Assembly: GCA_023150875.1 (NCBI GenBank)
Contig: JAKLKC010000012.1
Location: 5,565 to 69,564 of the forward strand
Source: Myxococcota bacterium
GTDB taxonomy: Bacteria > Myxococcota_A > UBA796 > UBA9615 > JAKLKC01
Reading direction: 5' to 3'
DNA length: 64,000 nt
In this document: positions 14,744 to 45,542 of the stretch, in pieces
How positions within the stretch are numbered: position 1 is the first letter of the stretch
How the letters are laid out: every line of letters begins with the position of its first letter
The notes under the pieces: model-generated
Told to the model about the DNA's origin: nothing
Databases searched by the model: none
What the model saw: only the letters and a program-made list of their open reading frames with translations
Position numbers and translations under genes: made by a program

Positions 14744-17212
14744 GTGCGCTGGCTCCTCACCCGCCTGCTCCTGCTCCTGATCCTCGCCACTGCCGCCGCC
14801 GCCGCGGGGGCCTGGGCGTGGTCGGGGGTCCTGGACGCCCGGATCGTCGATCGCATCGAGCGGGGGCGCGCCCTGGACGAGCCCTCGGTGGTGTGGGGCG
14901 CTCCCGTGGTGGTGCGGAAGGGGGAGTACCTCAGCATCTCCCGGGCCCGGGAGGCCCTCACCCGGGCGGGCTGGACCGAGGCCCGGGAGGTGGACGGCGA
15001 CCGCCGCTTCCACGTGTCCCGCAACGCGCTGCTCCTGGATCCTCCGGGGGACCCGCGGCTGGAGGTCCGCCTCGTCCAGGACCGCGTCACCTCCATCCGG
15101 GACGCGAAGGGCGTCGAGCGCCCCGAGTACGCGCTCCCCGCCGAGGAGATCGCCCCCCTGGTGGGCGAGGACCGCACCCGCAGGACGCCGGTGCCCCTGG
15201 CGGAGATCCCCCAGGTGGTCCAGGACGCCGTGCTCGCCATCGAGGACTCCCGCTTCCACCAGCACCCGGGCGTCGACCTGCGGTCCCTGGTCCGGGCCGC
15301 CTGGGCGGACCTGCGGGCGCGGGAGTTCGTGCAGGGCGGCTCCACCATCACCCAGCAGCTCGCCAAGAACCTCTTCCTGGCCCCCGAGAAGAAGCTCCTG
15401 CGCAAGGCCAACGAGCTGCTGATCGCCCGGGCGCTGGAGCGCCGCTACGGCAAGGACCGGATCCTGGAGCTGTACCTGAACCAGATCTACCTGGGGCAGC
15501 GGGGGGGCTTCGCCATCTACGGCGTCGAGCAGGGGGCGAGGGCCTACTTCGGGAAGACCCTGCGCCAGCTCGACCTGGCGGAGGCGGCCACCCTGGCGGG
15601 GGCGATCCAGGCCCCCAACCGGTGGGCCCCCTGGAAGCACCCCGAGGACGCCCGCCGCCGCCGAGACCAGGTCCTGGACCGCATGGTGACCACCGGGCTG
15701 GTCCCCCGGGAACGGGCCGAGACGGCCAAGGCGACGGCCCTGCACGTCAAGAAGGGGGAGGCGGTGCTGGCCCGCCGCGCCCCCTGGTTCCTGGAGCGGG
15801 TCCGCGACCTCCTCGAGGAGCGCTTCCCGGGCCCCGCCCTCGCCCGGGAGGGCTATCGGGTGGAGACCACCCTGGACCTCACCTTCCAGATCGCCGCCGA
15901 GGCGGCGGTGAAGGACGGCCTCGCCGCCCTGGAGGCGGGCTACCCCTCCCTCGCCCGGAAGGGGAGGCTGGAGGCCGGCCTCGTCTCGCTGGACCCCCGC
16001 ACCGGCGAGGTCCGCGCCTGGGTGGGGGGCCGGGACTACGGCGCCAGCCAGTTCGACCGGGTCCACCAGGCCCTCCGCCAGCCGGGATCGGCATTCAAGC
16101 CCCTGGTCCTGGCGGCGGCACTGGAGGCCGATCCCGAGGGCATCACGGGCGCCGCCACCTTCTCGGACGATCCCCTCACCGTCGAGGCGCCCGGCTCGGC
16201 GCCTTGGAGCCCCGGGAACTACGACGGCACCCACCGCGGACGGGTCACCCTCATGGAGGCCACCTGGGACAGCCGCAACCTCCCCTTCGTCCGCCTCGGG
16301 CAGCGGATCGGCCTCCCGGCGGTGGCGGCCACCGCCAGGGACATGGGGATCCGCTCCCCCGTGAAGCCGGTGCCCTCGGTGGTGCTGGGGGCCTCCGACA
16401 CTTCCCCTCTGGACCTGGCCGTCGCCTACGCCACCCTGGCGAACGGCGGCGCCCGGGTGAGCCCCTCGTGGGTGAGGGCCGTCCGCGACCCCGGCGGCGA
16501 GGCGCAGATGACGGTGGACCGGATCGCCCCCAAGCGGGTGCTCCGTCCCGACACCGCCCACCTGGTGACCGACCTGCTGCGGGGCGTGGTCCTGAGGGGG
16601 ACCGGGCGGGCCTCGTCCTCGGCGGTGAAGGTGCCCTTCGTGGGCAAGACCGGCACCACGGACCGCGCCCGGGACGCCTGGTTCGCCGGCTACTCGGCGG
16701 ACCTGGTGACGGTGGTGTGGGTGGGCTACGACGGGGAGGAGGTGGTGGGGCTGACGGGGGGACAGGCGGCCTTGCCCCTCTGGTCCCGCTACATGGCCTC
16801 CATCGGGAAGTACCTGTCTGGCCAGGACTTCTCGCCCCCGGAGGGCGTCGTCGCCGTCCCGGTGTGCCCCCGCTCCGGCCGGATCGCCCACCCCGGCTGT
16901 CCCCTCACCGTCCAGGCCGCCTTCCGGGCGGGCACCGATCCCCCGGAGTCGTGCCCGGTGCACGGGCTGGACGGGCAGGTGCTGGGGGAGGTCCCCCCCT
17001 GGCCTCCCGAGGACGCCGCCGCGGCCGCGGTGGCCATCGACGGCTCGCCGATCCCTGCAACCGCCCCGCCCGGGGACGGCGCCGCCCCGCCCTCCGCCGG
17101 AGAGGACCACCCGCGGGACCCCCTGGGCGCCCTCATCGCCCGCCGCAAGGCCGAGCGCGAGGCCCGCCGGCGGGCCCAGGAGGGGGAGGGCGCGGAGGCG
17201 GAGGGACGCTGA
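14744..17212 (+). CDS. penicillin-binding protein 1A (bifunctional transglycosylase/transpeptidase)
   Basis: GT51 motifs 'EDSRFHQHPGVD', 'GGSTITQQLAKN', 'RKANELLIARALERRYGKD'; transpeptidase region; GTG start at 14744 after RBS ggagg (ORF opens at 14633). Confidence 0.85.
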   Translation: MRWLLTRLLLLLILATAAAAAGAWAWSGVLDARIVDRIERGRALDEPSVVWGAPVVVRKGEYLSISRAREALTRAGWTEAREVDGDRRFHVSRNALLLDPPGDPRLEVRLVQDRVTSIRDAKGVERPEYALPAEEIAPLVGEDRTRRTPVPLAEIPQVVQDAVLAIEDSRFHQHPGVDLRSLVRAAWADLRAREFVQGGSTITQQLAKNLFLAPEKKLLRKANELLIARALERRYGKDRILELYLNQIYLGQRGGFAIYGVEQGARAYFGKTLRQLDLAEAATLAGAIQAPNRWAPWKHPEDARRRRDQVLDRMVTTGLVPRERAETAKATALHVKKGEAVLARRAPWFLERVRDLLEERFPGPALAREGYRVETTLDLTFQIAAEAAVKDGLAALEAGYPSLARKGRLEAGLVSLDPRTGEVRAWVGGRDYGASQFDRVHQALRQPGSAFKPLVLAAALEADPEGITGAATFSDDPLTVEAPGSAPWSPGNYDGTHRGRVTLMEATWDSRNLPFVRLGQRIGLPAVAATARDMGIRSPVKPVPSVVLGASDTSPLDLAVAYATLANGGARVSPSWVRAVRDPGGEAQMTVDRIAPKRVLRPDTAHLVTDLLRGVVLRGTGRASSSAVKVPFVGKTGTTDRARDAWFAGYSADLVTVVWVGYDGEEVVGLTGGQAALPLWSRYMASIGKYLSGQDFSPPEGVVAVPVCPRSGRIAHPGCPLTVQAAFRAGTDPPESCPVHGLDGQVLGEVPPWPPEDAAAAAVAIDGSPIPATAPPGDGAAPPSAGEDHPRDPLGALIARRKAEREARRRAQEGEGAEAEGR

Positions 17213-17240
17213 GGGCGGTCCCTCGTCCGGCGGAGCCAAG

Positions 17241-17303
17241 TCGAGTACCGAGCCCAGGACGAGCCCCCCGCGTTTCGTCACCAAGCACCCGAACGCCCGC
17301 CGT
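17241..17303. repeat. left copy of imperfect direct repeat (37-bp perfect core 17257-17293), putative attL
   Basis: 17257-17303 matches 59839-59885 with 1 mismatch; weaker identity extends to 17241/59823. Confidence 0.6.
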
Positions 17304-17427
17304 GGGGGTCATGGGGGCAATCGTCGCAGTGGATCGCCCGCGGCGATCTGCGCGTGCCCCGGCATCGAGTCGCCCCGGTGGACGCCAGGGACGACCATGA
17401 GCATACTGATGCACAGGAGGCATCGCG

Positions 17428-17676
17428 ATGGCCCCGACCCGCCGCGCCCAGATCCTGATGGACCCCGAGGAGTACGATGAGCTGGCCCGCATCGCCGAGG
17501 CCAGGATGGTCTCCGTCGCGGAGCTGATCCGCAACGCCGTGCGCGTCGTCTACCTTCGGTCCCGAGACGACCGGCTGGCGACCGTGGGGCGCATCGTGGC
17601 CATGGACCTCCCTGTAGAGCCCTGGCCGCGAACGAAAGCGGAGATCGAGGATGCCTATGACGCCGGCCTTCCTTGA
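17428..17676 (+). CDS. vapB: VapB-like antitoxin
   Basis: 82-aa ORF with RBS 'aggagg' upstream; overlaps downstream PIN gene by 26 nt. Confidence 0.6.
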   Translation: MAPTRRAQILMDPEEYDELARIAEARMVSVAELIRNAVRVVYLRSRDDRLATVGRIVAMDLPVEPWPRTKAEIEDAYDAGLP

Positions 17677-18070
17677 CTCCAACGTCTTCATCTACGCGGC
17701 CGGCGCCGACGGCCCGCTGAAGGCACCCTGCGCGGAGATCCTCCGTCGCGTGGGCGCCGGAGAACTGGACGCCAACACGAGCGTAGAGGTCGTCCAGGAA
17801 CTCCATCACGTCTTCCGCCGGCGCGGTCGGCTTGCCGACGGGGTACGCCTGGCGCGTGACGTCGTGCGCCTCTTCCCCGGGCTGTTGTCGATCACGCGGG
17901 CTGATGTGTTGAGGTCGGGAGACATCCTGATGGCGCGGCCTCAACTGTCCCCCCGGGACGCCCTCCACGCCGCGACCGCCCTGAACAACGGGATCACCAC
18001 CATCATCTCGGTGGACGCGGACTTGGAACACGTCGATGGCCTGTCAAGGCTGGATCCCGCCGGAATGTGA
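17651..18070 (+). CDS. vapC: PIN-domain toxin VapC
   Basis: 'FLDSNVFIYA...' N-terminal Asp, conserved acidic residues, 'ISVDADL' C-terminal; ~139 aa. Confidence 0.75.
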   Translation: MPMTPAFLDSNVFIYAAGADGPLKAPCAEILRRVGAGELDANTSVEVVQELHHVFRRRGRLADGVRLARDVVRLFPGLLSITRADVLRSGDILMARPQLSPRDALHAATALNNGITTIISVDADLEHVDGLSRLDPAGM

Positions 18071-18096
18071 CTCTCAGGGCGCCGCCCGAACCGTGG

Positions 18097-18180
18097 CGCC
18101 CGGGTGAGCCCCTCGTGGGTGAGGGCCGTTCGCGACCCCGGCGGCGAGGTGCGGATGACGGTGGACCGGGTCGCCCCTGA
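18097..18180 (+). pseudogene. fragment of PBP1A gene (copy of nt ~16456-16526)
   Basis: 'gcgcccgggtgagcccctcgtgggtgagggccgt.cgcgaccccggcggcgagg' near-identical to PBP1A. Confidence 0.5.
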
Positions 18181-18309
18181 TCGAGAGGGCATCGGCTTCC
18201 CACCGAGGAGGGCTGAAGGCGCTTTCGGACCGATCAGCGCTGCGCGGGGCGGGCCCTCAGTTCCCGCCCTCCATCCACCGGCAATCCGGCAGCTCGGGCC
18301 CGTGATGGC

Positions 18310-19505
18310 TCACCCGTCCCCCGAGGCCCCGCGGACAACTGCCTCGAGTGCCTCCCACGCGCCCGCCGGATCGAAGGCCCGCGCCGCATGGTCCGCGTCC
18401 AGCAGCGCATCCGGCAGGAACTCGTCGTACTTGTTGGCCGTCTTGTTCCTCACCGTCGCCGCGAGCTCGAGCGGATTCGCCGGCCCCGCCTCGACCAGCG
18501 CACGCAGGTGCTGCGCCATCCCCTCCGGCCGGACCCCGGACACTGCCAGCCCCAGCCCCATGCGCGTCACCGTGAGCCCGCGGGCCTGGAGCTGCACCTG
18601 GATCGTGTTCAGTGCGCGGTCCCCGACCCAGAGGAAGAGCAGCACTTCACTCCCGTAGGGCACGACGGCACGGCGCGCCAGGTCGTATCGGTCGAAGTTC
18701 TCGCGCCCCTCCCGCAGCAGGTCCGCTGCCCGGGCGTCGAGGAACGAGATCGGCTCCGTGGACGTGTACACCCGGTACATCTCCTTCCGCACCCCGTCGT
18801 GCACCGCCCCCCCCGTGCTCCCGAAGAACGGGACCCGCCCTCCCGGGGCTCGCACCAGGTCGAGCACCTTCCGGTCGCAGTCGACCGAGACCACCTTCCA
18901 GCGCCGCCCACCGAAGATCAGGAACATCTCCGGGTACACGGGGAAGGTGATCGGCAGCGTCCCCAGCGCCTTGCCGCCGCTCGTCAAGCGGTACTCCTCC
19001 GGCGTGACGAAGACCGCATAGAAGGTGTGGTGGTTGACCAGCCGCTCGCCCGCCAGCCCCAGCACCAGCACGCCGTCGTGCATCTGCGCGATCAGGTCGT
19101 GGCGGCCCATGCTTCGGAGCAGCTCGCCGAACATCGCCTGGCCGACGTTCGAGAACGGGCCGCCCCGGCAGAGCGCCTCCCACGCCCGGGCCGCGGAGAC
19201 TCCGCCGTGCTGGGCCACCAGCGACAGCACCTGCTGCAACAATGTCGACAGGTGGAGCATCCCCGCCGCGGGAGGCTCGTACCACCCGCGCAGCAGGAGG
19301 CGGACCGTCGCGACCGCCTGCACGAGTTCGGCGCGGAGCGCGTCCTGGGGTGATGGATCACCCGCCAGCTCTTCCTCGGTGACGTACATCCGGAGGATCG
19401 CCGGCTCACCCCGGCGGCCCGAGCGGCCGAGACGCTGTCGCAGGCTCGCGACCGACGGGGGAGCGCCGATCTGGGCCACGCTCCTCACCTGCCCGACGTC
19501 GAGGG
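18310..19505 (-). pseudogene. C-terminal remnant of an Lhr-like DEAD/DEAH helicase (truncated; no N-terminal helicase core)
   Basis: Translation starts matching at helicase motif VI 'LDVGQVRSVAQIGAPPSVASLRQRLGRSGR' and continues through the DEAD/H-associated domain; upstream part of ORF is noise. Confidence 0.55.
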
Positions 19506-20065
19506 GCGGCCGCGCCACCGGTCTGGGTGTCGCCGTTCCCTCGTGCCTGCGATCGTCAGCCGACGCAGTCTGTTGGGACGGCGTGCTCGCGCGAGGGCCC
19601 AGGGGGGCGCGCCCATGATTGGGTTCGTCGCCCTCGGCCAGCGGCTCTCCGTTGCGGTCGAGGGTGCCGTTGACGGTGTCCAGCGACCCTGCGGGGAGCA
19701 TCTCGACGCTGGTGCCGAGGGCCTCCCACTCCCCGCGGGTCCAGGAAGGCCGCTCCGCGAAGGCCCGCAGCAGCGCCGAGTGGGTGCCGTCCAAGCCCGC
19801 GATGATGGGCCCCCGCAACACCCCCCGGTACCCTCCCAGGCATCCACCCAGCACCAGCCAAGTCACACGCGAAGCTCGGACTCCGCACCGCATCGCCCCG
19901 AACGGACCCAGGTGGCCTCGCCCGGTAACAGGCACCCCAACGAGATCGCCGCGTTGTGTGTCCGATCCTCGGTCCGGCCGGCCTCGCCGGTAGGGCTCGA
20001 CGCATGGCCGCCCCCCTTCGCCCCCGGACCCACCGCGACTGGCCTCGGCTGGCGCTCGGCGTCGA

Positions 20066-20722
20066 CTACCCCATGGCCGGAACCTCGAGGGCGGCTCGGT
20101 GCAGGGTCAGGACGACCTCGGAGGCGCCCGGCGGGACTCCGTCGGCGGCCGCCCAGTGAAAGCGGGCACTCTCGACCTCGCTTACCACCCTCTTGAGCCA
20201 CGCGCGGGCGCTCGCCGAGACCGTGGGGCGCACCGACCCTTCGGCGAGCCTCGCCGCCCTCTCCGAGAAGTGGGTCCCGCCGCCGCGCTCATCGAGCATG
20301 ACGAGGGCCGGCACGACCTCGATCGCGTCGAGCGCGCCTCCCCCGAGCAGGTCCGAGATCCGGTACGGGCGCGTCCCCGAGAAGAGGGTCGGCTCCGGCT
20401 CCCCCAGCGCCTTCTTGAGCTGGATGGCGTAGCCGGCGGCCTGTGCGACGGCGGCCCCAGTCCGGTGGTGCCCGCGCCTCTTCGCCTCGACGACGAGCAG
20501 GAGCCGCCCGCGGGGGTCGTGGAGCAAGCCGTCAGGGCCGTTCTTGAACCCGCGCCCGCGAGCGCTCGCCTCGAAGCCCCACTCCGCATACCTGCCGTCC
20601 TGGTCCGTCAGCGGAATGGGTGTCAGCTCCCGCTCCTCGGCCGCGTCTCGCAGGATCCAGCGTACGCGCCCACCGGCGGGTGGTCGAAGCAGGTCCATCG
20701 TCCACTTCTGTTCCTTGAGCAT
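20066..20722 (-). CDS. restriction-endonuclease-like (HsdR N-terminal / PD-(D/E)xK) protein
   Basis: 'LHDPRGRLLLVVEAKRRG' resembles the D...hhhEaK nuclease core of HsdR_N/Mrr-type domains; ATG at 20720-20722. Confidence 0.45.
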   Translation of the reverse strand: MLKEQKWTMDLLRPPAGGRVRWILRDAAEERELTPIPLTDQDGRYAEWGFEASARGRGFKNGPDGLLHDPRGRLLLVVEAKRRGHHRTGAAVAQAAGYAIQLKKALGEPEPTLFSGTRPYRISDLLGGGALDAIEVVPALVMLDERGGGTHFSERAARLAEGSVRPTVSASARAWLKRVVSEVESARFHWAAADGVPPGASEVVLTLHRAALEVPAMG

Positions 20723-20871
20723 CGCTCGCTCCCGGGATCGCCGACATCGGGCCGGTGACGGTTCATCGTGGCACGAGGGCCGTTGGTCATGCCAACCAGG
20801 GCGACGCACCGTCGGCCCGACGAGGCATCCGCCGTCGGCGCACCGCCCGCCGAGACCTGCCAGCCTCGATA

Positions 20872-21150
20872 TGCTGGGCACCTCCGACACCTCCCCCCTG
20901 GACCTCGCCGTCGCCTACGCCACCCTGGCGAACGGCGGCGCCCGGGTGAGCCCCCCCTGCCCACCGAGGGCGAAGCGCCGGACGCGGCGGCCATCGACGG
21001 CTCGCCCGCCCCTTCCACCGCCTCGCCCGGCGGCGGCGCCGCCCCGCCATCCGCCGGGGGAGATCCCCCGCGGGATCCCCTGGCCCTCATCGCCCGCCGG
21101 AGGGCCGAGCGCGAGGCCCGGCAGCGGGGCCCAGGAGGGGTAGGGCGCGG
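20872..21150 (+). pseudogene. internally deleted copy of the PBP1A 3' end (matches 16384-16478 + 17025-17195)
   Basis: High nt identity to two PBP1A segments with ~550-nt internal deletion. Confidence 0.55.
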
Positions 21151-21201
21151 ACGAGGGCGGGCGTTGAGGCGGCCGGATGGCCCGGCGTGGGGAGGGAGAG
21201 G

Positions 21202-21405
21202 TCAGGGGACGGCGGAGTCGCCCTTCAGGTCGCCGGTGACGAGGTGGAGCAACTCGGTGGAGAGCTCGATCACCTGCTGGTGGGTGAGCCCGCTGCCCCG
21301 CAGCTCCTTGTAGAAGGAGCGGGCGAGGATCGAGCGCGCGCGGCGCCAGTCGTTGCCGGTGTACTGGGGACGCGTCTGCTGGGCCTGGGTCGCGACCTGC
21401 TTCAT
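21202..21405 (-). CDS. small hypothetical protein (67 aa)
   Basis: Strong RBS 'ggagga' 6 nt upstream of ATG; non-biased composition. Confidence 0.4.
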   Translation of the reverse strand: MKQVATQAQQTRPQYTGNDWRRARSILARSFYKELRGSGLTHQQVIELSTELLHLVTGDLKGDSAVP

Positions 21406-21595: not shown

Positions 21596-23161
21596 CTAGC
21601 CCCGGGCGAGGTCGTGGTCGTCCAGGTCGACCCGGAGGTGGCGGGCCAGGTGGGGGTGGACCCGCTGGACCTCCCGGAAGACCTGCTGGGCGACCCGCCG
21701 GTAGCTGACGTGGCCCTGTCGGGAGGAGCGCAGGGCCACGAAGTGGGCGAGGGAGCGCAGGTTCCAGGTGAAGAGCACCCGCTTGCGGAAGGCGAGGGGA
21801 ACGGCGTAGGGGGCGCACGCCGGGTGCTCGCGGCGGATCCGCTCCCAGGTCTCGTGGGAGCGCTCCATGTGGCGGCGGTAGGCGTCGCCGAGGCCCATCT
21901 CCTCCACCTCGACCGGGGTCGCGTAGCCCAGGTCGCACCCCAGATCCTGGTTGGACTGGGTGGCGATCCGGTGGCGCTGGACGTCCCGGAAGGCGCCGTA
22001 GTCCATCACCAGGTCGAAGGTGTAGGTGACGTGCTCCAGCTCCCGCAGGGGGGGATCGTGCCGGCCCCGGCGGCCCAGGTACTCGTCCAGGACCCGCCCC
22101 CGGGTCTCGGCGTCCATGGCCTCCGCCGCCCGGCGTGCCGCGCCGTAGGGAAGGTCCGAGAAGCGGTAGAGGATCGCCTCCACGAGGCGCACCTCGGCGT
22201 CGGCCTCCCACCGCACCAGGCGCACCCGGTTGCCCGCCCCCGCGTCGGAACCGAGGTCCTCGGGGAGGGCACCCGCCCCCCCTCCCGCCGCCTCCAGCCA
22301 CCCGGCGACCTCCTTCGCCATCGCCGCCTCGGTCTCCACCCGGTAGGGGCTCGCCTCGGCGTACTTGACCAGGGTGGGGATCACGTGGCGCGACTCCTCC
22401 TTCACGGACTCCCCGAGCCTCCGCACCTCGGCCAGGGGGTGGGAGAGCAGCTTGGAGATCGCCGACTCCAGCGAGCGGCCGTTGATCGTCACCCCCACGT
22501 TGGTGCAGGTGGAGGCGGGCAGGAGGTAGCGCAGCACGTCGCAGGCCTGGGCCCGGATGGCACCGTCGTGGACGGCCCGGGAGCGCCTGCCGGCGGGATC
22601 GTGGGGGGAGCGCCGCTCCAGCCACTCCCGGGCCACGGGCATCATCTCCCGGTAGCCGTCCATCAGGGCGTCGCAGTGCTCCTCCAGCAGCGCCCCCTCG
22701 GGGGTGCCCCGGAGCTCCGCCGGCCGGTGCCAGCGGTCCCGGTCGAAGACCACGTAGCGCGTGGACTTCTCGGTGAAGCTGGCCAGGCGCACGTCCTCCA
22801 GGGCCTTCGAGGCGAGGATGGACACGTCCTCGACGGCGACGTGGGCGACGGCGTGCTCGGCGACCGATCCGTGGCCGTAGCCGACGACCCACTTCTCGTG
22901 GAAGGCCCGGGCCTTGTCCCGGGCGCCGGCCAGGCCATCCCCGTCGGGCGTGGCCGGACCCGCCCCACCCACGTCCAGATCCCCCTGGCGGATCAGGCGC
23001 ACCAGGTTCCGGCGCAGGGAGTCGGGGCTCCGGCTGTAGTACGCGAAGAGCACCGCGATCACCTCCTCGGGGAGGTTCCGCAGGCAGAACACGTCGCCGT
23101 CCAGGCGGGTGACGTAGGGCGCCAGCAGGCGCGCCTCGCTCTCGGTGAAGGACTCGGTCAT
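21596..23161 (-). CDS. thyX: FAD-dependent thymidylate synthase ThyX-like (long, 521 aa)
   Basis: ThyX signature 'QRHRIATQSNQ' (RHRxxxxxS) in C-terminal half; ~2x usual ThyX length. Confidence 0.75.
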   Translation of the reverse strand: MTESFTESEARLLAPYVTRLDGDVFCLRNLPEEVIAVLFAYYSRSPDSLRRNLVRLIRQGDLDVGGAGPATPDGDGLAGARDKARAFHEKWVVGYGHGSVAEHAVAHVAVEDVSILASKALEDVRLASFTEKSTRYVVFDRDRWHRPAELRGTPEGALLEEHCDALMDGYREMMPVAREWLERRSPHDPAGRRSRAVHDGAIRAQACDVLRYLLPASTCTNVGVTINGRSLESAISKLLSHPLAEVRRLGESVKEESRHVIPTLVKYAEASPYRVETEAAMAKEVAGWLEAAGGGAGALPEDLGSDAGAGNRVRLVRWEADAEVRLVEAILYRFSDLPYGAARRAAEAMDAETRGRVLDEYLGRRGRHDPPLRELEHVTYTFDLVMDYGAFRDVQRHRIATQSNQDLGCDLGYATPVEVEEMGLGDAYRRHMERSHETWERIRREHPACAPYAVPLAFRKRVLFTWNLRSLAHFVALRSSRQGHVSYRRVAQQVFREVQRVHPHLARHLRVDLDDHDLARG

Positions 23162-25295: not shown

Positions 25296-26055
25296 GATGG
25301 AAATCGCCCGCTACTTCCAGGAGGTCGAGCTGCTCCTGCTCCACCTGCGAGAGGAGGGTCACTCCCTCTCCTCCGAGGACCTCCAGGTGCTGGAGGCCTG
25401 GTGGGACGGGGGCGTGCCCCTCACGCCGGTGCTGGCGGGGGTCCGCAAGGGGGCGGCCCGCCTGGCCCGCCGCAAGCGCCGGCCCCGGGGGCTCCGCCTG
25501 AAGGCGGTGGGCACCGACGTCGCCCGCGAGGTCAAGAGGGCGGCGAGCCGGGGCGTGGTCTTCCCCCGGGACGACACCCCCGACGTCGTCCCTCCGCCCG
25601 GCGGTGAGATCCCGTGGGGCCTCGACGATCCCCCGGACCCCATCGCCCCCGACGGCGAGGGGGGGGGCTACGCGCCGGACGAGGGGGACGAGCGGGTCCA
25701 CGCCGCGCGGATCGCCGAGGCGCTGGCGGCCGAGGCCGCCCGGATCGCGGACACCTCCCCGGAGGCGGCGGCGTTGGTGCGCTCGGTGGCCGGCGAGGCC
25801 GCGGACCTGGGGGCCGAGAGGGCCTACGTCCGCCTGGTGGAGGTGTCCCGGGCCTTCTACGCCGCCCGCCTCGACGCCCTGGACGCGGTCCCCCGGGGGC
25901 GGCTGCTGGCGGAGTCCCGGGCCTCCCTGGGCCCGGCGGCGGCCCGCATGAAGCCCCAGGCCCTGGAGGAGACGGTGCGAGAGCTGGCCCTTCGCCGCGT
26001 GATGGCCGAGGATCCCGTCCTCGATCCCGACCGCGTCCTGGAGATCCTGCCGTGA
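25296..26055 (+). CDS. hypothetical protein, coupled to downstream AAA ATPase (possible loader/replication partner)
   Basis: Stop TGA overlaps GTG of next gene (GTGA at 26052-26055). Confidence 0.45.
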
Positions 26056-26939
26056 CCGGCCACACCCCTCCCCAGGCCCCCTGCGCCGTCCTGGCCGCCT
26101 TCGAGAACCCCCGCCCCGTCAACGCCGGCGGCCACGCCCGGGTGGACCTGCCGGTGCCCGTGAGCGCCTGCCCCGGATGCGAGGGCCAGGGGTTCCGGCG
26201 CGCCACCTTCGAGAACGGCTACGTCTACGTGCGGGACTGCGAGGGCAAGGCGGCCCTGCGCCGCGCCGAGCTGTACAACCGCTCCGGCCTGCCCGGGCGG
26301 TACGCGGAGTCGTCCCTGGAGCTGTTCCAGCCCCACCCCGTCTCGGTGGGGGCGGCGCGGGCGGTGGCGCTGGAGTTCGTCCGGGCGTGGCCGGCGGCGA
26401 AGGCGGGCGTCGTCTTCGTGGGGAGGCCCGGGGTGGGCAAGACCCACCTGCTGGCGGGGATCGTGCGCTCCCTGACCCTCGATAAAGGGGTGCCCTGCCG
26501 CTACGTGGACTTCACCCACCTGGTGAACGACCTGCGGGCCGCCATCGGCCGCCGGTCCAGCCCCGCGGAGATCGTCCGGCCCCTGGTGGAGGTGGACCTG
26601 CTGGCGGTGGACGACCTGGGGCGGGGCCTGCTGGAGACCGACTACGAGGCCTCGGTGATCGACGAGCTGGTCAGCCGGCGCTACAACGCCGACCGCGTCA
26701 CCCTCTTCGCCACCAACTTCCCCGACGACCCGGCGGCGGAGCCCTCGGCGTCGCGGCGGCGCGAGACGAACCTGAGCGAGCGGGACGTCCGCCCGCGCCC
26801 CCTGGCCGAGGTCGTGGGCGAGCGGGTGGTGTCCCGGATCCGCCAGATGTGCCGCTTCGTGGAGATCGAAGCCGAGGACTTCCGCGCCACCGCGGGTCCC
26901 CGGCCCCTGCGGGGGAGGCCGCGACCGGCGCGGGGCTGA
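26052..26939 (+). CDS. DnaC/IstB-like AAA+ ATPase with N-terminal Cys-rich region
   Basis: Walker A 'GRPGVGKTHLL', Walker B 'LLAVDDLG', 'CPGCEGQG...RDCEGKA' zinc-ribbon-like. Confidence 0.65.
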   Translation: MTGHTPPQAPCAVLAAFENPRPVNAGGHARVDLPVPVSACPGCEGQGFRRATFENGYVYVRDCEGKAALRRAELYNRSGLPGRYAESSLELFQPHPVSVGAARAVALEFVRAWPAAKAGVVFVGRPGVGKTHLLAGIVRSLTLDKGVPCRYVDFTHLVNDLRAAIGRRSSPAEIVRPLVEVDLLAVDDLGRGLLETDYEASVIDELVSRRYNADRVTLFATNFPDDPAAEPSASRRRETNLSERDVRPRPLAEVVGERVVSRIRQMCRFVEIEAEDFRATAGPRPLRGRPRPARG

Positions 26940-32685: not shown

Positions 32686-33614
32686 GCCTCGATCTCCTGC
32701 GCCCGCGGCCGCCCCGCGCTTCGGGGCCGCACCAACACGCGAGCCTCCGCCCATCTTCCCCCGCGGCGCCCCCTCCCGGCCGCCCCCGTCCGCCCGGCGC
32801 CGCTCCCGGGAGCGCCGGGGGCGGCCATTCTATTCCTTCCGCCCGGGATTTCACCCCCGCCCGGCGGGACCGTGCTCCCCCGCCCGCGTCCGGGCCCGGG
32901 CCCGGGCCCGTTCAGTCCCACCTCGGGAACAAGCGGCGCGCGACCGGGGGGCCATCCCGCCCTCCGGGGAGGGCGAGGGCGGGCGCGACAGTGGGGGCCT
33001 GACCGCCGCTCCGTCGCTCACCACGCCCCGTACGGCCCCCCTTCGGGGGGTCGGCGGCGAAACGTGAGTGACTGGGTGGGCGTCGAGGTCAAGCGTCCCC
33101 GCGGTCGCGGGCCAGCCGGAGGATCTCCTCGTGGAGCCAGCGGGTGAGCTGCTCCTCGGAGGAGGATAGGACGGACAAAGCGCCGATCTCGAGGGGGGCG
33201 CCGGGTATCGGGGGAGGCCACCTGGGTCCGCTCGGGGCGATTCGGCGCGGTAGCGAGCTGCGTGTGTGAGTTGTGTGGCATCGTGTGGACGCCTGGAAGG
33301 GCATCGGGCCTGCTGCGAGCGCTCGCCGGAGGGGGGATCGGCGGGGGTGCGCCGCGGAGGTCGGGCGAGTGAGGAGGTCGGGGCATGGGGGTGGGCCTGC
33401 GTGGCGGGGAGATGATCGCACATCGATGCCCGGGCATGCCTCGTCTGGACGGGGGAGTCGCCGGGAGCGCCGCGCGCGCCGGTGCGGAGCGGCTGCACTC
33501 TTGTCTTGAAGATGACGTTCGGGGCGCATTGATACCCATAGGGAAGGATTGGCCGCCCCGGTGAAAGCGGGCGCCGCCGGTCCGGTGTCCCCGCGCGCGA
33601 CGGGAGGCAGCCGC

Positions 33615-39311: not shown

Positions 39312-41348
39312 TCAGGCCACCCCCAGCGCCTTGAACGCCGCCTGCCGCACGTCTCCGAAGAAGATCGGGTCCACCCGCTCCAGGACGTCGGGATGGACGT
39401 CCAGGATCTGGCGCTTGTTCTCGATGGGGACGAGGGCGCGGCGGGCGCCATTGTCCATGGCGACCTGGAGGGGCTCGGTCAGGGAGCGGACCGGCTTGAT
39501 GTTGCCCTGCACGCTCATGTCGCCCAGCACCAGCAGGCTCGCCTGGGGCGGGGACCGGCGCAGGATGGAGTAGGCGGCGACGAAGAAGGCGACGCCGATC
39601 TCCGCCTCCACCCGGTTGCCCAGCAGGTCGATGACCTCGACGTGCAGGTCCGACGTGTCGAGCTCCCGGGCCACGCCGAAGGGGGTCTTCTGGGCGTGGA
39701 GGTGGGCGAAGGCGCGCTGGACCGACTCCTTCATCGCCCCGCTCACGCCCCCCGCCAGCTTCAGCTTGCCGGTCCCCGACGACTGCGACACCTCCACCCG
39801 GTACAGGCCCACCGTGCCGTCCCCGCTGACCGAGGCCGTGTAGACCGTGCCCGGCGGCAGGGGGTCGGTGGAGATCAGGTCGCGCCCCCCCTGCTCGGGA
39901 ACGCCGACGAAGCGCTCCTCGCCCGTCTCGTGGTCGACATAGCTGAAGCTCGTCTGGTAGTACTCGAAGGAGCCCATCTTCTTGAGCTGCTCCTTCACCC
40001 GGCGCCGGCCCTCCAGGGCGAAGGCCAGGACCTCCTCCAGGTCCTCCTTGGAGACCTCGCCGTGGGGGTGCAGGACCTTCACCAGCCCCGACACCGTGCG
40101 CCGCACCGCCTTGCGGTCCCGGGCGTTCAGGTGGGAGCCGAGGTCGAAGTGGTGGTCCAGCGTCTCGGTGAAGTTGAGGCGGCGCAGCTCCCGCATCGCC
40201 TCGGCCAGGTAGTCCACCACGAAGCCGTAGTGGTCGGTGAAGTGTTCGTTGCGCATCTTCGGCACCTCCCACCCCGGCAGGTAGAAGTGCAGCCGGTCGA
40301 TGAACGCCATGTCGTCCCGGATCACGTCCGGCATCGGCGCGAACAGGTGTCCCGTCTGGACCATCACGTCCACCGGCTGCTGGGTGTTGCCGAACATCGC
40401 CACGCTGGCGTAACCCGACGCCTCCTCCTGGCCCCGCTGGTAGCGCCCCGACTCGCAGTAGGTCTTGAGGGTGGTCACCACCTCCTTCGGCATCTTCTGC
40501 AGGTCGGCCACCTCGTCGAAGCCCACCACGTCCCAGATCTGCACCATCCCCTTCTGGCGACCGCTCATGTGGCCGAAGAGGTTGGCCACCGTCGTCGGAC
40601 CCGTCAGCAGCGCCGCGTAGGGCGACAGCTCCTGCACCGCGTAGCTCTTGCCCGTGCCCCGCGGGCCCAGCTCCACCAGGTTGAAGTTCTGCTCGCACAG
40701 GGGCACCAGGCGCGCCAGGAAAAGCAGCTTCAGCCGCCGCGCCATCACCGTCGGCTCGTAGCCCATGCTGCGAAGGAGCAGGTCGATCCACTCGTCGGTC
40801 GTGAACCCGGCCCGCGTCCGCCGGTAGTCGTCCAGGTCGAAGGTGGCGAGCTGGATGGGGGTCAGCTTCTCGATCCAGAACGGGTACCTGCCCCGGTTCT
40901 CGTCGTCGGGCAGGAAGCGCAGGTCCACCTGAGCCCAGATCCCGCCGGTGAGCAGGCGGTCGTAGGAGCGGACGTAGTGCTCGGGCACGCGCACGTGCTG
41001 GTGGCCGAAGTTCGCCAGCTCCGCCCAGTAGTCCGAGTCTACCAGCCGCACCTTCACTTTGTCGATGAAGGTCCAGCGCCCCTTCTCCCGGACCCGGCTC
41101 TGGGCCTTCATGGACTCGTCGGGCCGGATGTAGTTCTCGGCCAGCGTGTCCTTCACCACCTGCAGCCCCATCTGGATCGCCATCTCGTCCGACGAGGCGC
41201 AGTACTTGCCGAGCAGGTACTCCAGGACGAAGACCGGGACGTTCGCCCCCACCTTCACCTTGCGGACGAGGTCCTTGCGGACCACGCGCCCCGCGAAGAG
41301 GCGGTTCACTTTGTCGTCGAGCGCGTCGCGCGTCGGGGGCACGTTCAC
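39312..41348 (-). CDS. brxL: BREX Lon-like protease BrxL
   Basis: N-terminus 'DDKVNRLFAGRVVRKDLVRKVKVGANVPVFVLEYLLGKYCASSDE' matches BrxL family; Walker A 'LGPRGTGKS'; C-terminal Lon-like domain; GTG start. Confidence 0.9.
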   Translation of the reverse strand: MNVPPTRDALDDKVNRLFAGRVVRKDLVRKVKVGANVPVFVLEYLLGKYCASSDEMAIQMGLQVVKDTLAENYIRPDESMKAQSRVREKGRWTFIDKVKVRLVDSDYWAELANFGHQHVRVPEHYVRSYDRLLTGGIWAQVDLRFLPDDENRGRYPFWIEKLTPIQLATFDLDDYRRTRAGFTTDEWIDLLLRSMGYEPTVMARRLKLLFLARLVPLCEQNFNLVELGPRGTGKSYAVQELSPYAALLTGPTTVANLFGHMSGRQKGMVQIWDVVGFDEVADLQKMPKEVVTTLKTYCESGRYQRGQEEASGYASVAMFGNTQQPVDVMVQTGHLFAPMPDVIRDDMAFIDRLHFYLPGWEVPKMRNEHFTDHYGFVVDYLAEAMRELRRLNFTETLDHHFDLGSHLNARDRKAVRRTVSGLVKVLHPHGEVSKEDLEEVLAFALEGRRRVKEQLKKMGSFEYYQTSFSYVDHETGEERFVGVPEQGGRDLISTDPLPPGTVYTASVSGDGTVGLYRVEVSQSSGTGKLKLAGGVSGAMKESVQRAFAHLHAQKTPFGVARELDTSDLHVEVIDLLGNRVEAEIGVAFFVAAYSILRRSPPQASLLVLGDMSVQGNIKPVRSLTEPLQVAMDNGARRALVPIENKRQILDVHPDVLERVDPIFFGDVRQAAFKALGVA

Positions 41349-41352
41349 GGGG

Positions 41353-43920
41353 CTACCTCAGGAGGCTCGTGGGCAGGGCGGGGGACGAGGCGAGGACCGC
41401 CCCCGAGGCCGGATCCAGGACCACCACCTTCACCGACGCCGCGTCCTCGCCGCCCAGCGTCAGGCCGACGTGGGCCTTCGCGCCCGGCCGGACCCGCAGC
41501 ACCCCCCGCTCCCGGTCGAGCTCGCCCCCGCTGACCATGCCCGCCGCGCCCACCTGCTGCTGCTCCGACAGGACCACCACCCGCAGCTCCACCGCCTCGG
41601 GCGCGAACAGCGGCGGCGCCTTCACCTCGACCTCCACCACGAAGACCCGGTTCGTGATGCGCTCGGGCAGCCCCGCCAGGACCACCTCGATCCCGCCCGT
41701 CCCCGGCGCCGGCTCCCCCGCCGGGATCCGGAAGGAGAGGACCGGGATCACCAGCTCCTGGAGGCTCGTGCTCCCGTGGTGGAAGCTCAGGTCCCCGCCG
41801 GCCTTGAACACCCCCAGGCCCGCCGGGAACACGAGCTCCAGGTCGCCGGCGTAACCGAGCTCCCCCGCCGACACCCGCACCGTCCCGGGGGGCGTCGCGC
41901 CGCCGCGGCCGATCCAGACCCGCCGGTGGAGCTCCACCGTATCGCCGCCGGGGGCGTCGGTCTTCATGTCGTCCCCCTTCCGCAGCCCGAAGAGGTGGCC
42001 GTGGTCGGCGGTCACCACGAAGTGCTCCACCCCCGCGGCCGAGAGGCGCCGGGCCGCCCGGGCGAGGTCGCCGATCACCCCCTCCATTGCCCGCCGGGCC
42101 AGGTGGTCGTCCCCTGTCTCGCCCAGGTAGTCGATCTCCGTCGACCGCACCACCACCAGGGACCGGCCCGCGACCCGCCGCCGCAGCTCGGACGCCTTGT
42201 CCTGGAGCACCCGGCTCAGGGTCAGGTCCACGACGTCGGGCACCCGCGCCTGCAGGTACCTCGTCCGCTCCGTCACCCCCGAGAGCGGCACCCCGTCCAC
42301 CAGGGCCGCCACCTTCCCCTTGTGGGCCACCACCGACAGGTTCGCGGACGCCCCCGGCAGCAGCGCCGCCATGCCCACGGGCGTGATGGTGGGCAGGGCC
42401 GCCACGGCGGGGAGCAGGTGGAGGTCCAGGGCCCCCGGGAGCTGCCGCGCGAGCTCCACCCCCATCTCGTACCGCAGCGCGTCGACCAGGAAGTACGCCA
42501 CCGGCCCTCCCCGGGTCGCCACCACGTCCGGGTGGACGCGCGCCTGGTGCAGGACCCCCGGCACGCTCCAACCCGCCCGGGCGAGGGCCGCGGTGAAGCC
42601 CCGGGCCATGTCGTGGAGCAGCCGCTCCGCGTCCCGGAGCACGACGCTGATCGCCTTCTCGAACAGGGACTCGTCGCCGACCCGCCCCCGCCACGTCTCC
42701 AGCGCCCGCTGGGCGGCGTCCACCCGGTGCCACCCGTCCTCGGCGGCGTAGCCCGCCACCCAGGTCTCCGGACCCGCCGAGGTCGGGGGCAGGCTGCCCT
42801 TCACCGCCCCGATCCGCAGGCCGAGCACGGCGACGCGCCGCGCCACCTCCCATTGCTCCTTGCGGGGGACGCGGGTGGCCTCGTCGGTCCACTCCACCCA
42901 GAAGCTCCGCTCGCGATCCTCCACCACCTCCAACGCCTCGCCGAACCGTCCCCGCTCCAGCAGCTCGGCGCACCAGGAGAGCAGGAGCCGCTCCTCGAAC
43001 TCGAAGGTGTCGATGCGCCCCAGGTCCTCCGCCCGCACCTTCGCCCTCGCCAGGTGGAACTCCTGCTCCACCTGCCGGGCCCGGGCCGCGTAGGCCGGGG
43101 CGTGGTCCCGCCGGAAGCGCCGGGCCAGCTCCCGCACCTGCTCGCGTTGGGCCTCGGTCTCTGGCGCCGGCTGCCCGGACATCGACGCGGGCGGAGGCGC
43201 CCGGAGGTCCATCCGGAACTCGCCCAGCAGGACGTAGCGGGCGAGGCGGCCGCGGGCCTGGGCCAGGGGAAGGCCGTCGTCGAGGTGCAGGCCCACCTTC
43301 GAGGCGACGAGGCGGTACAGCTCCGCGGCGGCGCCCTTCTCGGCGATCTCCGCGTCCCGGGCCTCGTCGGCGAGCCACCGGACCAGGATCTCGGAGTCGG
43401 CGGCGTCCCCGAAGATCACCTTCAGCCGCGACGCCTCGCCGCCGTCCCGCTGCGCCAGGAAGGCCACCACGTCGTCGTAGGTGGCGCGCCCTCCCTCCAG
43501 CACCTCGTCGATGACCCCGTCGGTGTAGCGCCGGCGCAGGCAGTCCCGGGCCTGTCGGGGGAAGTCCCAGTCCAGGCGGCGCCCGGCCTTCTGCAGCTCC
43601 ATGAGCACGTCCCGGGCGGGCTCGGGCAGCTCCGCGGGCACGTAGACCAGGAGGGGCGGATCGGGGGGGCCGTCCCCCGCGAAGAAGGGCTCGACGGCGT
43701 CCCGCACCGCGAACCACGAGCCCTCGAAGGTGACGAGGCGGGCCCGACCGTCGCCCAGGTCCACCTCGAAGACGTCGGGGTGCTCGTCGCTCCAGGCACA
43801 CGCGCCGGCCAGGTCGTCGAAGAAGGGCCGGAAGGCGCCGGCGGGGTCCACGACGACGGCGACACCCCGACGCAGCGCGGCGCGCACCTGCTCGGCGAGG
43901 TGGGTGTGGAAGGGGTTCAT
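41353..43920 (-). CDS. pglZ: BREX alkaline-phosphatase-superfamily protein PglZ
   Basis: 'YFLVDALRYEMGVEL', 'VVTADHGHL' PglZ motifs; ATG at 43918-43920 overlaps stop of upstream gene (ATGA). Confidence 0.9.
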   Translation of the reverse strand: MNPFHTHLAEQVRAALRRGVAVVVDPAGAFRPFFDDLAGACAWSDEHPDVFEVDLGDGRARLVTFEGSWFAVRDAVEPFFAGDGPPDPPLLVYVPAELPEPARDVLMELQKAGRRLDWDFPRQARDCLRRRYTDGVIDEVLEGGRATYDDVVAFLAQRDGGEASRLKVIFGDAADSEILVRWLADEARDAEIAEKGAAAELYRLVASKVGLHLDDGLPLAQARGRLARYVLLGEFRMDLRAPPPASMSGQPAPETEAQREQVRELARRFRRDHAPAYAARARQVEQEFHLARAKVRAEDLGRIDTFEFEERLLLSWCAELLERGRFGEALEVVEDRERSFWVEWTDEATRVPRKEQWEVARRVAVLGLRIGAVKGSLPPTSAGPETWVAGYAAEDGWHRVDAAQRALETWRGRVGDESLFEKAISVVLRDAERLLHDMARGFTAALARAGWSVPGVLHQARVHPDVVATRGGPVAYFLVDALRYEMGVELARQLPGALDLHLLPAVAALPTITPVGMAALLPGASANLSVVAHKGKVAALVDGVPLSGVTERTRYLQARVPDVVDLTLSRVLQDKASELRRRVAGRSLVVVRSTEIDYLGETGDDHLARRAMEGVIGDLARAARRLSAAGVEHFVVTADHGHLFGLRKGDDMKTDAPGGDTVELHRRVWIGRGGATPPGTVRVSAGELGYAGDLELVFPAGLGVFKAGGDLSFHHGSTSLQELVIPVLSFRIPAGEPAPGTGGIEVVLAGLPERITNRVFVVEVEVKAPPLFAPEAVELRVVVLSEQQQVGAAGMVSGGELDRERGVLRVRPGAKAHVGLTLGGEDAASVKVVVLDPASGAVLASSPALPTSLLR

Positions 43921-45355: not shown

Positions 45356-45482
45356 GGCGCCTCGGGGAGAAGCGGGGAGAGCTGGCGGGCGGAACGGCTC
45401 ATGCACGGTCCCCGACCGGCCTGCGGTCCGCCACATCGGGCGCACCGATCCGGGGGATGCTGCCGGAGGGCGGGAGCGCGGC

Positions 45483-45542
45483 GACGCCCCGGCGCCGCGC
45501 GGCGCGCACCAGCTCGGCGAGGTGGGTGTGGAACGGGCTCAT
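45483..45542 (-). pseudogene. remnant of a second pglZ 5' end (20 codons, MSPFHTHLAELVRAARRRG...)
   Basis: 45483-45542 ~ 43861-43920 at nt level incl. ATGA junction; similarity stops abruptly. Confidence 0.5.

Follow-up and report, generated by a model that had tools for sequence, protein, structure and literature searches.

The window examined here, a stretch of 64,000 nucleotides from the genome of an uncultured Myxococcota bacterium, contains an intact PBP1A gene followed by direct repeats of its own 3' region, an assortment of accessory genes and gene remnants, and a small conserved gene (Table 1). The PBP1A translation has Transgly and Transpeptidase domains (Pfam, 2.7e-63 and 1.2e-26), carries the SxxK, SxN, and KTG motifs, and is 100% identical to protein P0001, with the next protein match at 47%. 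Look-ups by exact protein sequence gave matches for RecR, the 67-aa ORF, VapB, and the nuclease ORF and none for PBP1A, the PIN protein, or the beta-helix protein with either of two starts. The block between PBP1A and the distal repeat (fragment 2) spans positions 17215-20871, or ∼3.7 kb, and is a mosaic. Because the GC3 values of its vapBC genes, Shango pieces, and nuclease open reading frame (ORF), 0.83 to 0.91, lie below the 0.95 to 0.97 of PBP1A, the 67-aa gene (0.97, core-like), thyX, and other core genes, the block looks foreign. A first-pass annotation of this DNA had placed the PBP1A fragments inside an island, but the 3.7-kb zone is not continuous with the BREX/Septu/recombinase island at 39 to 60 kb; thyX and a GldAFG-like ABC transporter, with core-like codon usage, lie between the two. 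No integrase gene was found in 17215-20871, a scan for promoters and terminators found none, and Rfam gave no match in the block or in the 149-nt repeat at the edge of the Shango remnant.

Table 1. Features of the PBP1A locus and of the distant sequences related to it (window coordinates)
Feature	Coordinates	Strand	Description
PBP1A, class A penicillin-binding protein, intact	14744-17212	+	822 aa; MCK6527572.1, Myxococcota MAG
Source block within PBP1A	16383-16530	+	Template of fragments 1 and 2a; encodes the transpeptidase block LGASDTSPLDLAVAYATLANGG
63-nt scar	17241-17303	+	28 nt past the PBP1A stop; direct repeat of 59823-59885 (59/63, E 4e-21)
vapB-like ribbon-helix-helix antitoxin gene, intact	17428-17676	+	82 aa; Pfam RHH_1 9.4e-4 (weak, just below cut-off)
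vapC PIN-domain toxin gene, intact	17651-18070	+	Pfam PIN 8.5e-15; overlaps vapB by 26 nt
PBP1A fragment 1	18087-18177	+	Copy of 16440-16530 (85/91, 93.4%; self-BLASTN E 1e-33); codons 603-633 from ORF start 14633; non-coding debris
sngC C-terminal half, Shango helicase	18310-19500	-	Profile positions 332-717 of 720; PADLOC SngC 1.3e-117
sngA piece, Shango TerB-like	19624-19803	-	Profile positions 450-510 of 528; PADLOC SngA 1.4e-6
149-nt repeat	19824-19970	.	5' edge of Shango remnant; inverted copy at 33162-33308, intergenic
Orphan ORF, PD-(D/E)xK nuclease fold, apparently intact	20066-20722	-	218 aa; MCK6527576.1
PBP1A fragment 2	20872-21169	+	20872-20954 = 16383-16465 (fragment 2a; 78/83, 94%; self-BLASTN E 3e-30); 20951-21169 = 16993-17214 (tail; 183/223, 82%, 3 indels; E 2e-56)
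67-aa gene, conserved PBP1A neighbor	21202-21405	-	Adjoins fragment 2; marks the ancestral PBP1A 3' end
Large serine recombinase ORF	58007-60082		Probable start near 58313
Right-hand 63-nt copy	59823-59885	+	Where the serine recombinase ORF meets the beta-helix lipoprotein gene (3' end)
Beta-helix lipoprotein gene	59860-61527	-	

Accessory genes and gene remnants

Shango comprises genes for a TerB-like protein, an ATPase, and a DEAD/DEAH helicase (PMC10250203, which gives the content together with the PA14 gene listing). The hypothetical ORF at 18310-19821 (MCK6527575.1) resembles this system in its strong SngC match, its match to the SngA C terminus, and its gene order, in which sngA sequence comes before sngC sequence on one strand, but these two partial matches are all that is present, in a single ORF, and SngB and helicase motifs I to V are absent. 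The sngC remnant lacks the N-terminal half of the helicase and starts ∼20 residues before motif VI (QRLGRSGRRG, aligned with PDB entries); it has no Pfam DEAD or Helicase_C match and also matches PADLOC BrxHI (7e-40). The sngA piece, whose sole Pfam match is TerB_C (5.5e-6), is fused to it in frame, with 41 residues between the SngA and SngC matches, and covers too little of the profile to represent the TerB-like protein. Between the two pieces there is neither an ORF for sngB nor room for one. An internal deletion has fused sngA to sngC; sngB is gone, and ∼1.3 kb of the 5' part of sngA is absent as well. A fusion of this kind without sngB shows that deletion followed later; judged from its sequence, the Shango copy is a gutted, non-functional remnant. 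The helicase had first been described as an Lhr-like, C-terminal-only remnant beginning exactly at motif VI. It is indeed C-terminal only, but it begins somewhat earlier and is specifically Shango SngC (E 1e-117), fused to an SngA piece; NCBIfam Lhr-type models match weakly and far below cut-off (E 1e-4 and 8e-3), with TIGR04121 reaching 20 bits versus a cut-off of 850 and PRK09751 13.5 bits versus 1496, and the likeness to Lhr appears to be at the superfamily 2 level only, near motif VI.

The 218-aa ORF carries a PD-(D/E)xK catalytic motif on a conserved alpha-beta core and is a predicted nuclease. The motif and fold bear out its initial description as a small nuclease; the HsdR-N-like label does not survive, with no Pfam match (HSDR_N included) even at E ≤ 5 and none in NCBIfam or PADLOC. 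A homolog of this ORF, P0242, is on a contig of 1.6 kb, too short to be informative on its genomic context, and a variant with 96% aa identity, P0247, is encoded on a Logan contig of 5.1 kb. Two "hypothetical proteins" of the MAG can accordingly be reannotated, one as a fused remnant of Shango and the other as an orphan protein with a nuclease fold. The copies of the 149-nt repeat are 78% identical over 149 nt (E 2e-25), and the repeat folds no better than shuffled sequences.

The PIN toxin gene is preceded by an overlapping small gene for a putative DNA-binding antitoxin, the arrangement of a VapBC type II toxin-antitoxin pair. A second strain (SRR32236738), 98.3 to 98.8% identical to the window and thus ∼1.5% diverged, encodes an identical VapB protein, with 4 synonymous nucleotide differences, and its vapC differs at 9 nucleotides, 8 of them at codon position 3 and one giving an S-to-T change. 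Hence 12 of the 13 differences are synonymous, which directly indicates purifying selection on vapBC.

At its distant position, the 63-nt repeat takes in the final codons of the large serine recombinase ORF together with the last 8 codons and stop of the beta-helix lipoprotein gene, which is on the opposite strand. The two copies stop at equivalent positions. A 19-mer search for further copies recovered these two only, a search for the left att arm of the recombinase found the reverse complement of the right arm only at the same two places, and viral contigs searched for recombinase relatives or the 63-nt core contained neither.

Repeats of the PBP1A 3' region

Self-BLASTN and a repeat search identified three direct repeats of the PBP1A 3' region, all downstream of the intact gene. 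The strongest unrelated matches in the same self-BLASTN reached at most 42 bits (E ≥ 3e-4), and the edges of the repeats are sharp, with identity in the fragment flanks falling abruptly to 25 to 45% (ungapped). The first-pass annotation had reported two non-contiguous copies of PBP1A 3' sequence downstream of the gene, with the caveat that formal alignment might find them below significance; the E values in Table 1 confirm the copies, all three repeats being highly significant, and the fragment positions given there were essentially right, if slightly short at each side. Four breakpoints fall within the source block (16383, 16440, 16465, and 16530), and a 26-nt segment, 16440-16465, is common to all three copies of it. 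The longest exact match to the source block is 48 nt for fragment 2a and 35 nt for fragment 1. A PBP1A paralog was considered as the source of the fragments and rejected, because the non-conserved disordered tail was copied too, at 82% identity. Fragment 1 has unrelated sequence on both sides.

Fragment 2 consists of two pieces of PBP1A joined over a deletion of 16466-16992 (527 to 531 nt), with CCCC microhomology at the joint, and its right end lies 2 nt beyond the PBP1A stop codon. The copy in the window carries both a frameshift and a TAG, whereas in the second strain the last 14 codons and the stop are in frame, ending RRAQEGEGADEGGR*. Four of the five mismatches in fragment 2a are at codon position 3, and divergence in the tail, with 35 mismatches, exceeds that in the conserved block by a factor of 2.5 to 3 (Fisher p = 0.02), statistics that rest on few sites; such a pattern would be expected of two once-functional alleles rather than of one decaying duplicate.

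The gene next to fragment 2 bears on its origin. The 67-aa protein is 62% identical (E 4e-22) to the product of a 66-aa gene in a relative with 47% identity in PBP1A; there the gene lies 215 nt downstream of PBP1A, and the upstream synteny, dnaX-ybaB-recR-...-TPR-PBP1A, is kept. Because fragment 2 adjoins this conserved neighbor and retains an in-frame stop in the second strain, it is most plausibly the older PBP1A 3' end, now displaced, although the orientation of the 67-aa gene is inverted relative to the distant relative, which counts against this explanation. The relative age of the two alleles may be obscured by gene conversion, since the tail of fragment 2 in the second strain is identical to the intact gene over at least 30 nt. 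The next PBP1A relative being only 47% identical, the empty site was never seen directly: a genome contig scan with PBP1A gave relatives of 28 to 44% only and no island-free one, the C-terminal 330 aa, used as a query, recovered no partial sequence that was nearly identical, and a scan of metagenome contigs with a degenerate pattern of the PBP1A tail gave two chance matches only.

The junctions of the window are matched at 100% by Logan contigs from independent runs (at least 8 runs, 3 projects), which are 100% identical to the window over 16453-17953 (L029 and L031), 17264-18234 (L032), 18100-20954 (L036 and L037), and from 20925 rightwards (L017 to L024); the deletion junction of fragment 2 is present in eight independent contigs. 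The sole part left unspanned at k = 31 is a 48-nt exact repeat (16418-16465 = 20907-20954). The second strain reproduces the junctions and has fragment 1 as well as both PBP1A tails (contigs L020 and L033). Its identity to the window is 98.3% over the block at 17215-20871 and 98.4 to 98.8% over the core, and because the divergence of the block about equals that of the core, the block is old and vertically inherited.

Proposed history of the locus

The repeats and their boundaries, the gene identities, the conserved neighbor, the architecture common to two strains, and the selection on vapBC can be read off directly, and from them we infer a sequence of events, a donor, and a recombination mechanism. 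We consider it most probable, at roughly 0.58, that the region represents scars of recombination and no working device: the 3' end of a donor PBP1A was imported together with accessory genes, and deletions followed. Ancestrally, the 67-aa gene and thyX would have come immediately after PBP1A. The incoming DNA would have come from a related but distinct lineage, ∼6% different in the transpeptidase block and ∼16 to 18% in the disordered tail, with a cargo of the 3' part of the donor PBP1A, a Shango sngABC operon, and the PD-(D/E)xK nuclease gene; vapBC and a serine-recombinase element may have arrived with the same DNA or later. Homologous recombination inside PBP1A would have made the left end and an illegitimate join at resident position 16383 the right end, either by one-sided homology-facilitated illegitimate recombination or by Campbell-type integration of a circle carrying a piece of PBP1A. 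By either route the product would be a complete, chimeric PBP1A, with the resident 3' end (fragment 2) moved ∼3.7 kb downstream and its native neighbor still attached.

Most simply, then, the current 3' end of the intact PBP1A is the copy brought in with the inserted block, because fragment 2 behaves as the displaced former end beside the conserved neighbor; this supports the original suggestion that the intact gene was restored from a carried copy. Fragment 1 would be the relic of a second displacement, in this lineage or already in the donor. Subsequent deletions would have removed 16466-16992 of fragment 2 at the CCCC microhomology, sngB with the flanking halves of sngA and sngC, the recombinase element down to 63 nt, and the bulk of the copy of which fragment 1 remains, while vapBC survived under purifying selection and the nuclease ORF stayed full length. 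Repeated insertion and deletion had been proposed at the outset. The deletions are evident in the CCCC joint and the sngA-sngC fusion; repeated insertion is suggested by fragment 1 only, and a single complex event would account for it just as well, as would a donor in which fragment 1 was present beforehand. A purely illegitimate process does not predict that the left ends of the two fragments (16383 and 16440) and one deletion end (16465) fall within 83 nt, and this clustering hints at a site preference, although the longest perfect identity between the alleles is in the same block and could favor exchange there.

Alternative readings

Clustering of this kind, with three or four breakpoints in 16383-16530 and 16440-16465 common to three copies, would be expected if site-specific elements target the transpeptidase block (∼16383-16530) and carry a replacement 3' end, stacked integrations displacing prior ends. 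The serine-recombinase scar just past the PBP1A stop, and matches of the recombinase to the Ccr and XisF models, enzymes known for insertion at gene ends, also agree with this. We nevertheless regard such targeting as unlikely: the left ends of the fragments differ (16383 for fragment 2 and 16440 for fragment 1), the block has no integrase gene of its own, and recombinase arm (P-arm) sequence was found beside neither fragment, so that the block does not look like an att-duplicating site-specific element; moreover, the carried copy must be ∼830 nt, far above known att cores, and serine recombinases do not make long duplications.

The 63-nt direct repeats, exactly at both ends of 17304-59885, raise the further prospect that these 42.6 kb are one composite element inserted between convergent PBP1A and beta-helix genes. 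Fragment 2, the 67-aa gene, thyX, and the genes of the ABC transporter would then be chromosomal DNA picked up in an earlier host. Removal of the segment would leave the two genes convergent and ∼65 nt apart with their ORFs intact, and a single Logan contig (L030, SRR17665570) leads from the 3' end of the recombinase via the repeat to 17304-17738, as a circular or tandem junction would. This account strikes us as improbable, because the switch in L030 lies inside a 38-nt identical core, where a chimera of a low-coverage de Bruijn graph at k = 31 looks alike, the genes at 21 to 33 kb are core-like (GC3 0.94 to 0.97), the adjacency of PBP1A and the 67-aa gene is kept in a distant relative, and a 63-nt duplication is atypical for large serine recombinases and not made by their integration; fragment 1 would still need a separate explanation.

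Local origin without any foreign PBP1A is likewise doubtful. The fragments would then be short patches copied from the nearby gene in end-joining repair or replication template switching during insertion or deletion of accessory DNA, followed by neutral decay. Fragment 1, only 91 nt long between unrelated flanks and with mismatches spread evenly over codon positions (2/2/2), speaks for this, and the deletion in fragment 2, with microhomology at its joint, shows repair of this type at work in the locus. Fragment 2, however, reaches the stop codon and adjoins the conserved neighbor gene, its conserved block has a third-position bias while its tail is more diverged, and a divergence of 6 to 18% is large compared with the 1.2 to 1.7% between strains that already share the architecture.

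As a more speculative suggestion, which we make with little confidence, mobile defense cargo in this Myxococcota lineage may repeatedly land or be exchanged at the "AYATLANGG" block of PBP1A, each arrival rebuilding the last 830 nt of the gene; instead of this, or as well, the segment of 42.6 kb that the 63-nt repeats enclose might be a serine-recombinase element that can still excise and that carries BREX, Septu, and housekeeping genes it has captured, as the lone junction contig L030 would suggest. An assembly or binning artefact, with strain variants merged into one contig, is very improbable: the window derives from a metagenome-assembled genome and the 48-nt repeat is unspanned by k = 31 contigs, but every other junction is reproduced exactly in independent runs, the second strain has both tails, and collapsed variants would create neither fragment 1 nor the deletion junction.

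Discussion

The locus is an ordinary scar of horizontal gene transfer, a piece of genome-plasticity debris that reveals no new mechanism. It offers a clear example of an essential core gene, one of the cell wall, that survives a foreign insertion in its own coding region, a carried 3' end replacing the resident one, and in which the old PBP1A end persists as a datable pseudogene fragment. The Shango defense system erodes in place while the toxin-antitoxin pair is kept, and the locus may add a little to what is known of island turnover in Myxococcota.

Islands that insert at gene 3' ends, such as tRNA/tmRNA islands and SCCmec arrays at rlmH, leave displaced or duplicated ends. As in those cases, the host gene here is intact, 3' direct repeats flank foreign DNA in more than one layer, and a Ccr/XisF-like serine-recombinase scar lies at the gene end. 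Unlike in those cases, the repeats begin ∼830 nt inside the gene rather than at a short core, the copies are 6 to 18% diverged, the breakpoints are not common to them, and the block is without its own integrase.

Homology-facilitated illegitimate recombination and Campbell-type single crossover yield an intact chimeric gene and a displaced 3' fragment on the native flank. The predicted product matches the locus, which has a one-sided homologous anchor in a core gene, an illegitimate far join, and microhomology at deletions; a single genome shows the product of such a process and not the process itself.

Core defense hotspots are sites flanked by core genes where diverse defense systems gather and turn over, and Shango was itself described from one (Johnson et al. 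2023, PMC10250203). The locus differs from these in that two strains only are compared, with the same content in both, and in that its Shango copy is a non-functional remnant; it is like them in that Shango, a nuclease, and a toxin-antitoxin pair, with BREX and Septu further right, adjoin core genes.

Copies of the PBP1A 3' end and their neighborhood

Three direct repeats of the 3' portion of PBP1A (fragments 1, 2a, and 2b, with 2a and 2b forming fragment 2) emerged from aligning 13-23 kb to the window by self-BLASTN and from a separate repeat search; unrelated matches in the same self-BLASTN reached at most 42 bits, and similarity is lost abruptly at every fragment boundary. The proposal of the first-pass annotation that PBP1A 3' copies lie in this island is borne out, while its wider reading, repeated insertion and deletion at the PBP1A 3' end, is supported only in part. 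Fragments 2a and 2b meet across a deletion of 16466-16992, with CCCC microhomology at an out-of-frame joint, and the tail copy (2b) contains a 1-nt insertion and a TAG and ends 2 nt beyond the site that corresponds to the PBP1A stop. The block from which copies derive, 16383-16530, codes for the conserved transpeptidase stretch LGASDTSPLDLAVAYATLANGG.

The window has a GC content of ~73%. Its PBP1A protein has 100% identity to NCBI MCK6527572.1, from a 128-kb MAG contig of an uncultured Myxococcota bacterium; the next relative has only 47% identity, and the gene order dnaX-ybaB-recR-x-x-TPR-PBP1A is also kept in that genome. A homolog search with the C-terminal 330 amino acids of PBP1A missed P0001, a protein that contains the query at 100% identity, indicating that the word-based candidate step can overlook even identical sequences and that the negatives of this search are weak.

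Features of the PBP1A locus, the wider window, and the contigs covering it
Feature	Position	Strand or orientation	Details
Core genes left of fragment region	PBP1A, 14744-17212	PBP1A, plus	tRNA-Ser, SRP RNA, dnaX, ybaB, recR, TPR protein, PBP1A
63-nt scar	17241-17303	Direct	Repeat of 59823-59885; 59/63, E 4e-21
vapB	17428-17676		Left of fragment 1
vapC	17651-18070		PIN domain, 8.5e-15
Fragment 1	18087-18177	Direct	Copy of 16440-16530; 85/91, E 1e-33
Shango remnant ORF	18310-19935	Minus	Annotated start at 19821
149-nt repeat	19824-19970	Inverted	Copy at 33162-33308
Nuclease-fold ORF	20066-20722		218 aa
Fragment 2a	20872-20954	Direct	Copy of 16383-16465; 78/83, E 3e-30
Fragment 2b	20951-21169	Direct	Copy of 16993-17214; 183/223, three indels, E 2e-56
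67-aa gene	21202-21405	Minus	Directly right of fragment 2
BREX locus, type 1-like	39312-57399	Minus	BrxL, PglZ, PglX, BrxC (DUF6079), BrxE-like gene
PDC-M63A/DUF6932 gene	44912-45445		Embedded in BREX locus
Septu PtuB	45539-46228		Embedded in BREX locus; E 4e-60
L029 + L031	16453-17953		100% identical to window
L032	17264-18234		100% identical to window
L036 + L037	18100-20954		100% identical to window
Eight contigs from right side	Reach 20925		Exactly 30 nt (k-1) into 48-nt exact repeat
L033 (strain 2)			PBP1A tail, 63-nt scar, vapBC, start of fragment 1
L020 (strain 2)			Fragment 2b tail, 67-aa gene, thyX and beyond

An assembly artifact was ruled out: the Logan contigs (k=31, independent runs) obtained through exact-protein look-ups were all 100% identical to the window and leave unspanned only a 48-nt exact repeat, which the MAG contig crosses. 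In a second strain (SRR32236738), 98.3 to 98.8% identical to the window, the contigs covering the two PBP1A tails begin on the same 30-mer and diverge afterwards, which indicates that this strain carries both tails and that the architecture is older than the strain split. The strain 2 fragment 2 tail (equivalent to 21127-21170) matches the intact PBP1A tail over a stretch of 30 nt or more in which the window copy differs at three places, suggesting either gene conversion between PBP1A and its displaced fragment or a faster decay of the copy in the window strain.

Gene content between the fragments

Between the two strains, 12 of 13 nucleotide differences in vapBC are synonymous, indicating that the pair is kept by selection. 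Shango consists of a TerB-like protein, an ATPase, and a DEAD/DEAH helicase (PMC10250203), and pieces of two of its genes are joined in one ORF, which makes it a gutted Shango operon: residues 146-530 correspond to PADLOC SngC positions 332-717 of 720 (E 1.3e-117), and residues 45-104 to SngA positions 450-510 of 528, the same stretch as a Pfam TerB_C match. The operon has lost sngB, the sngC N-terminal half with motifs I-V, and ~1.3 kb of sngA. The earlier description of an Lhr-like remnant starting at motif VI was right in substance, with QRLGRSGRRG ~20 residues into the match, but the family to which the remnant belongs is SngC, Lhr models falling far below the cut-off. The 149-nt repeat pair is 78% identical; one copy lies upstream of the Shango remnant and the other upstream of a plus-strand ORF at 33549, with the same orientation in each case. 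Rfam gave no match to the repeat, and folding gave no signal.

The 218-aa ORF has only three remote homologs among 1.84 billion representatives, with an invariant motif, GPD...V-EAKR. Family profile searches returned no match; the designation REase-like holds, and the narrower label HsdR-N-like is not demonstrated.

Probable origin of the fragments

Fragment 2 is best read as the displaced former PBP1A 3' end and the block at 17215-20871 as foreign DNA, with which the current PBP1A 3' end would have arrived. Several observations lead to this reading. First, the 67-aa gene is 62% identical (E 4e-22) to a 66-aa gene after PBP1A in the 47% relative, although its orientation differs between the two genomes. 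Second, the final 14 codons of the strain 2 fragment 2 tail are in frame, reading RRAQEGEGADEGGR before the stop, where the intact PBP1A ends in RRAQEGEGAEAEGR. Third, 4 of 5 differences between fragment 2a and the intact gene fall at third codon positions and the tail is 2.5 to 3 times as diverged as the conserved block (Fisher p = 0.02), favoring two once-functional alleles over a decaying local duplicate. Fourth, GC3 sets the two kinds of DNA apart, at 0.83 to 0.91 in vapBC, the nuclease ORF, and the pieces of Shango, against 0.95 to 0.97 in core genes, PBP1A, thyX, and the 67-aa gene among them. The ThyX homolog (21596-23161) is unusually long at 521 aa, its Thy1 domain being matched in two stretches.

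The layout, an intact chimeric PBP1A followed by the insert and after that by a displaced 3' fragment continuous with the native flank, is predicted exactly by three processes: homology-facilitated illegitimate recombination, Campbell-type integration of a circle that would have carried a PBP1A piece, and a site-specific element bringing a replacement gene end. The last could account for the notable clustering of breakpoints in 16383-16530, but the fragments' left ends are unequal (16383 versus 16440), neither an integrase nor recombinase arm sequence lies beside them, and the carried copy would need ~830 nt, so that the recombination models are favored; the clustering may simply reflect the longest perfect identity between the diverged alleles (48 nt) in that block. 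Fragment 1 implies either a second displacement or a donor scarred beforehand; a repair patch would also fit, its mismatches being spread evenly over codon positions.

A minority rival holds that the 42.6 kb bracketed by the 63-nt copies is one element. Both copies lose similarity at the same relative position. The right-hand copy sits at the junction of a large serine recombinase ORF (Resolvase, Recombinase, and Zn_ribbon_recom domains; XisF/Ccr-like) with a beta-helix lipoprotein gene 3' end, and with the interval excised, PBP1A and the beta-helix gene would both be intact and would converge. A single low-coverage contig (L030, from SRR17665570) joins the recombinase 3' end (59163-59885) through the repeat to 17304-17738, upstream of vapB, as expected of a circular or tandem junction. 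Its switch, however, lies within the 38-nt identical core of the repeat, where a chimera of the k=31 graph would give the same picture, and the interval holds genes with core-like codon usage as well as the conserved 67-aa neighbor of PBP1A; the single-element reading is therefore kept only as the minority one. The recombinase ORF lacks a stop at the element boundary and runs on for 66 codons antisense into the beta-helix gene 3' end (59860-60082), and the last 8 codons and stop of the lipoprotein gene lie within the repeat.

Elsewhere in the window, the BREX operon holds the PDC-M63A-like gene and ptuB between its pglX and pglZ, and GC falls to 0.60 in pglX at 49-50 kb. A 106-nt pglZ-internal piece (43828-43933) has a copy (80%) that falls between ptuB and the PDC-M63A-like gene (45450-45555), giving what looks like another scar in the style of the PBP1A fragments. 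At 25297-26939, amid housekeeping-like genes, a 252-aa ORF without a family match precedes an IstB_IS21/DnaA-like ATPase gene (26052-26939), which could be what remains of an IS21-type element or a replication loader.

Comparison with known systems

What is new is only the particular locus, together with the identification of a Shango remnant and of an orphan family with a nuclease fold in a Myxococcota lineage that has been little sampled. The locus is otherwise an instance of known phenomena: gene-end duplication at island borders, erosion of a defense system at a hotspot adjoining core genes, and retention of an addiction module.
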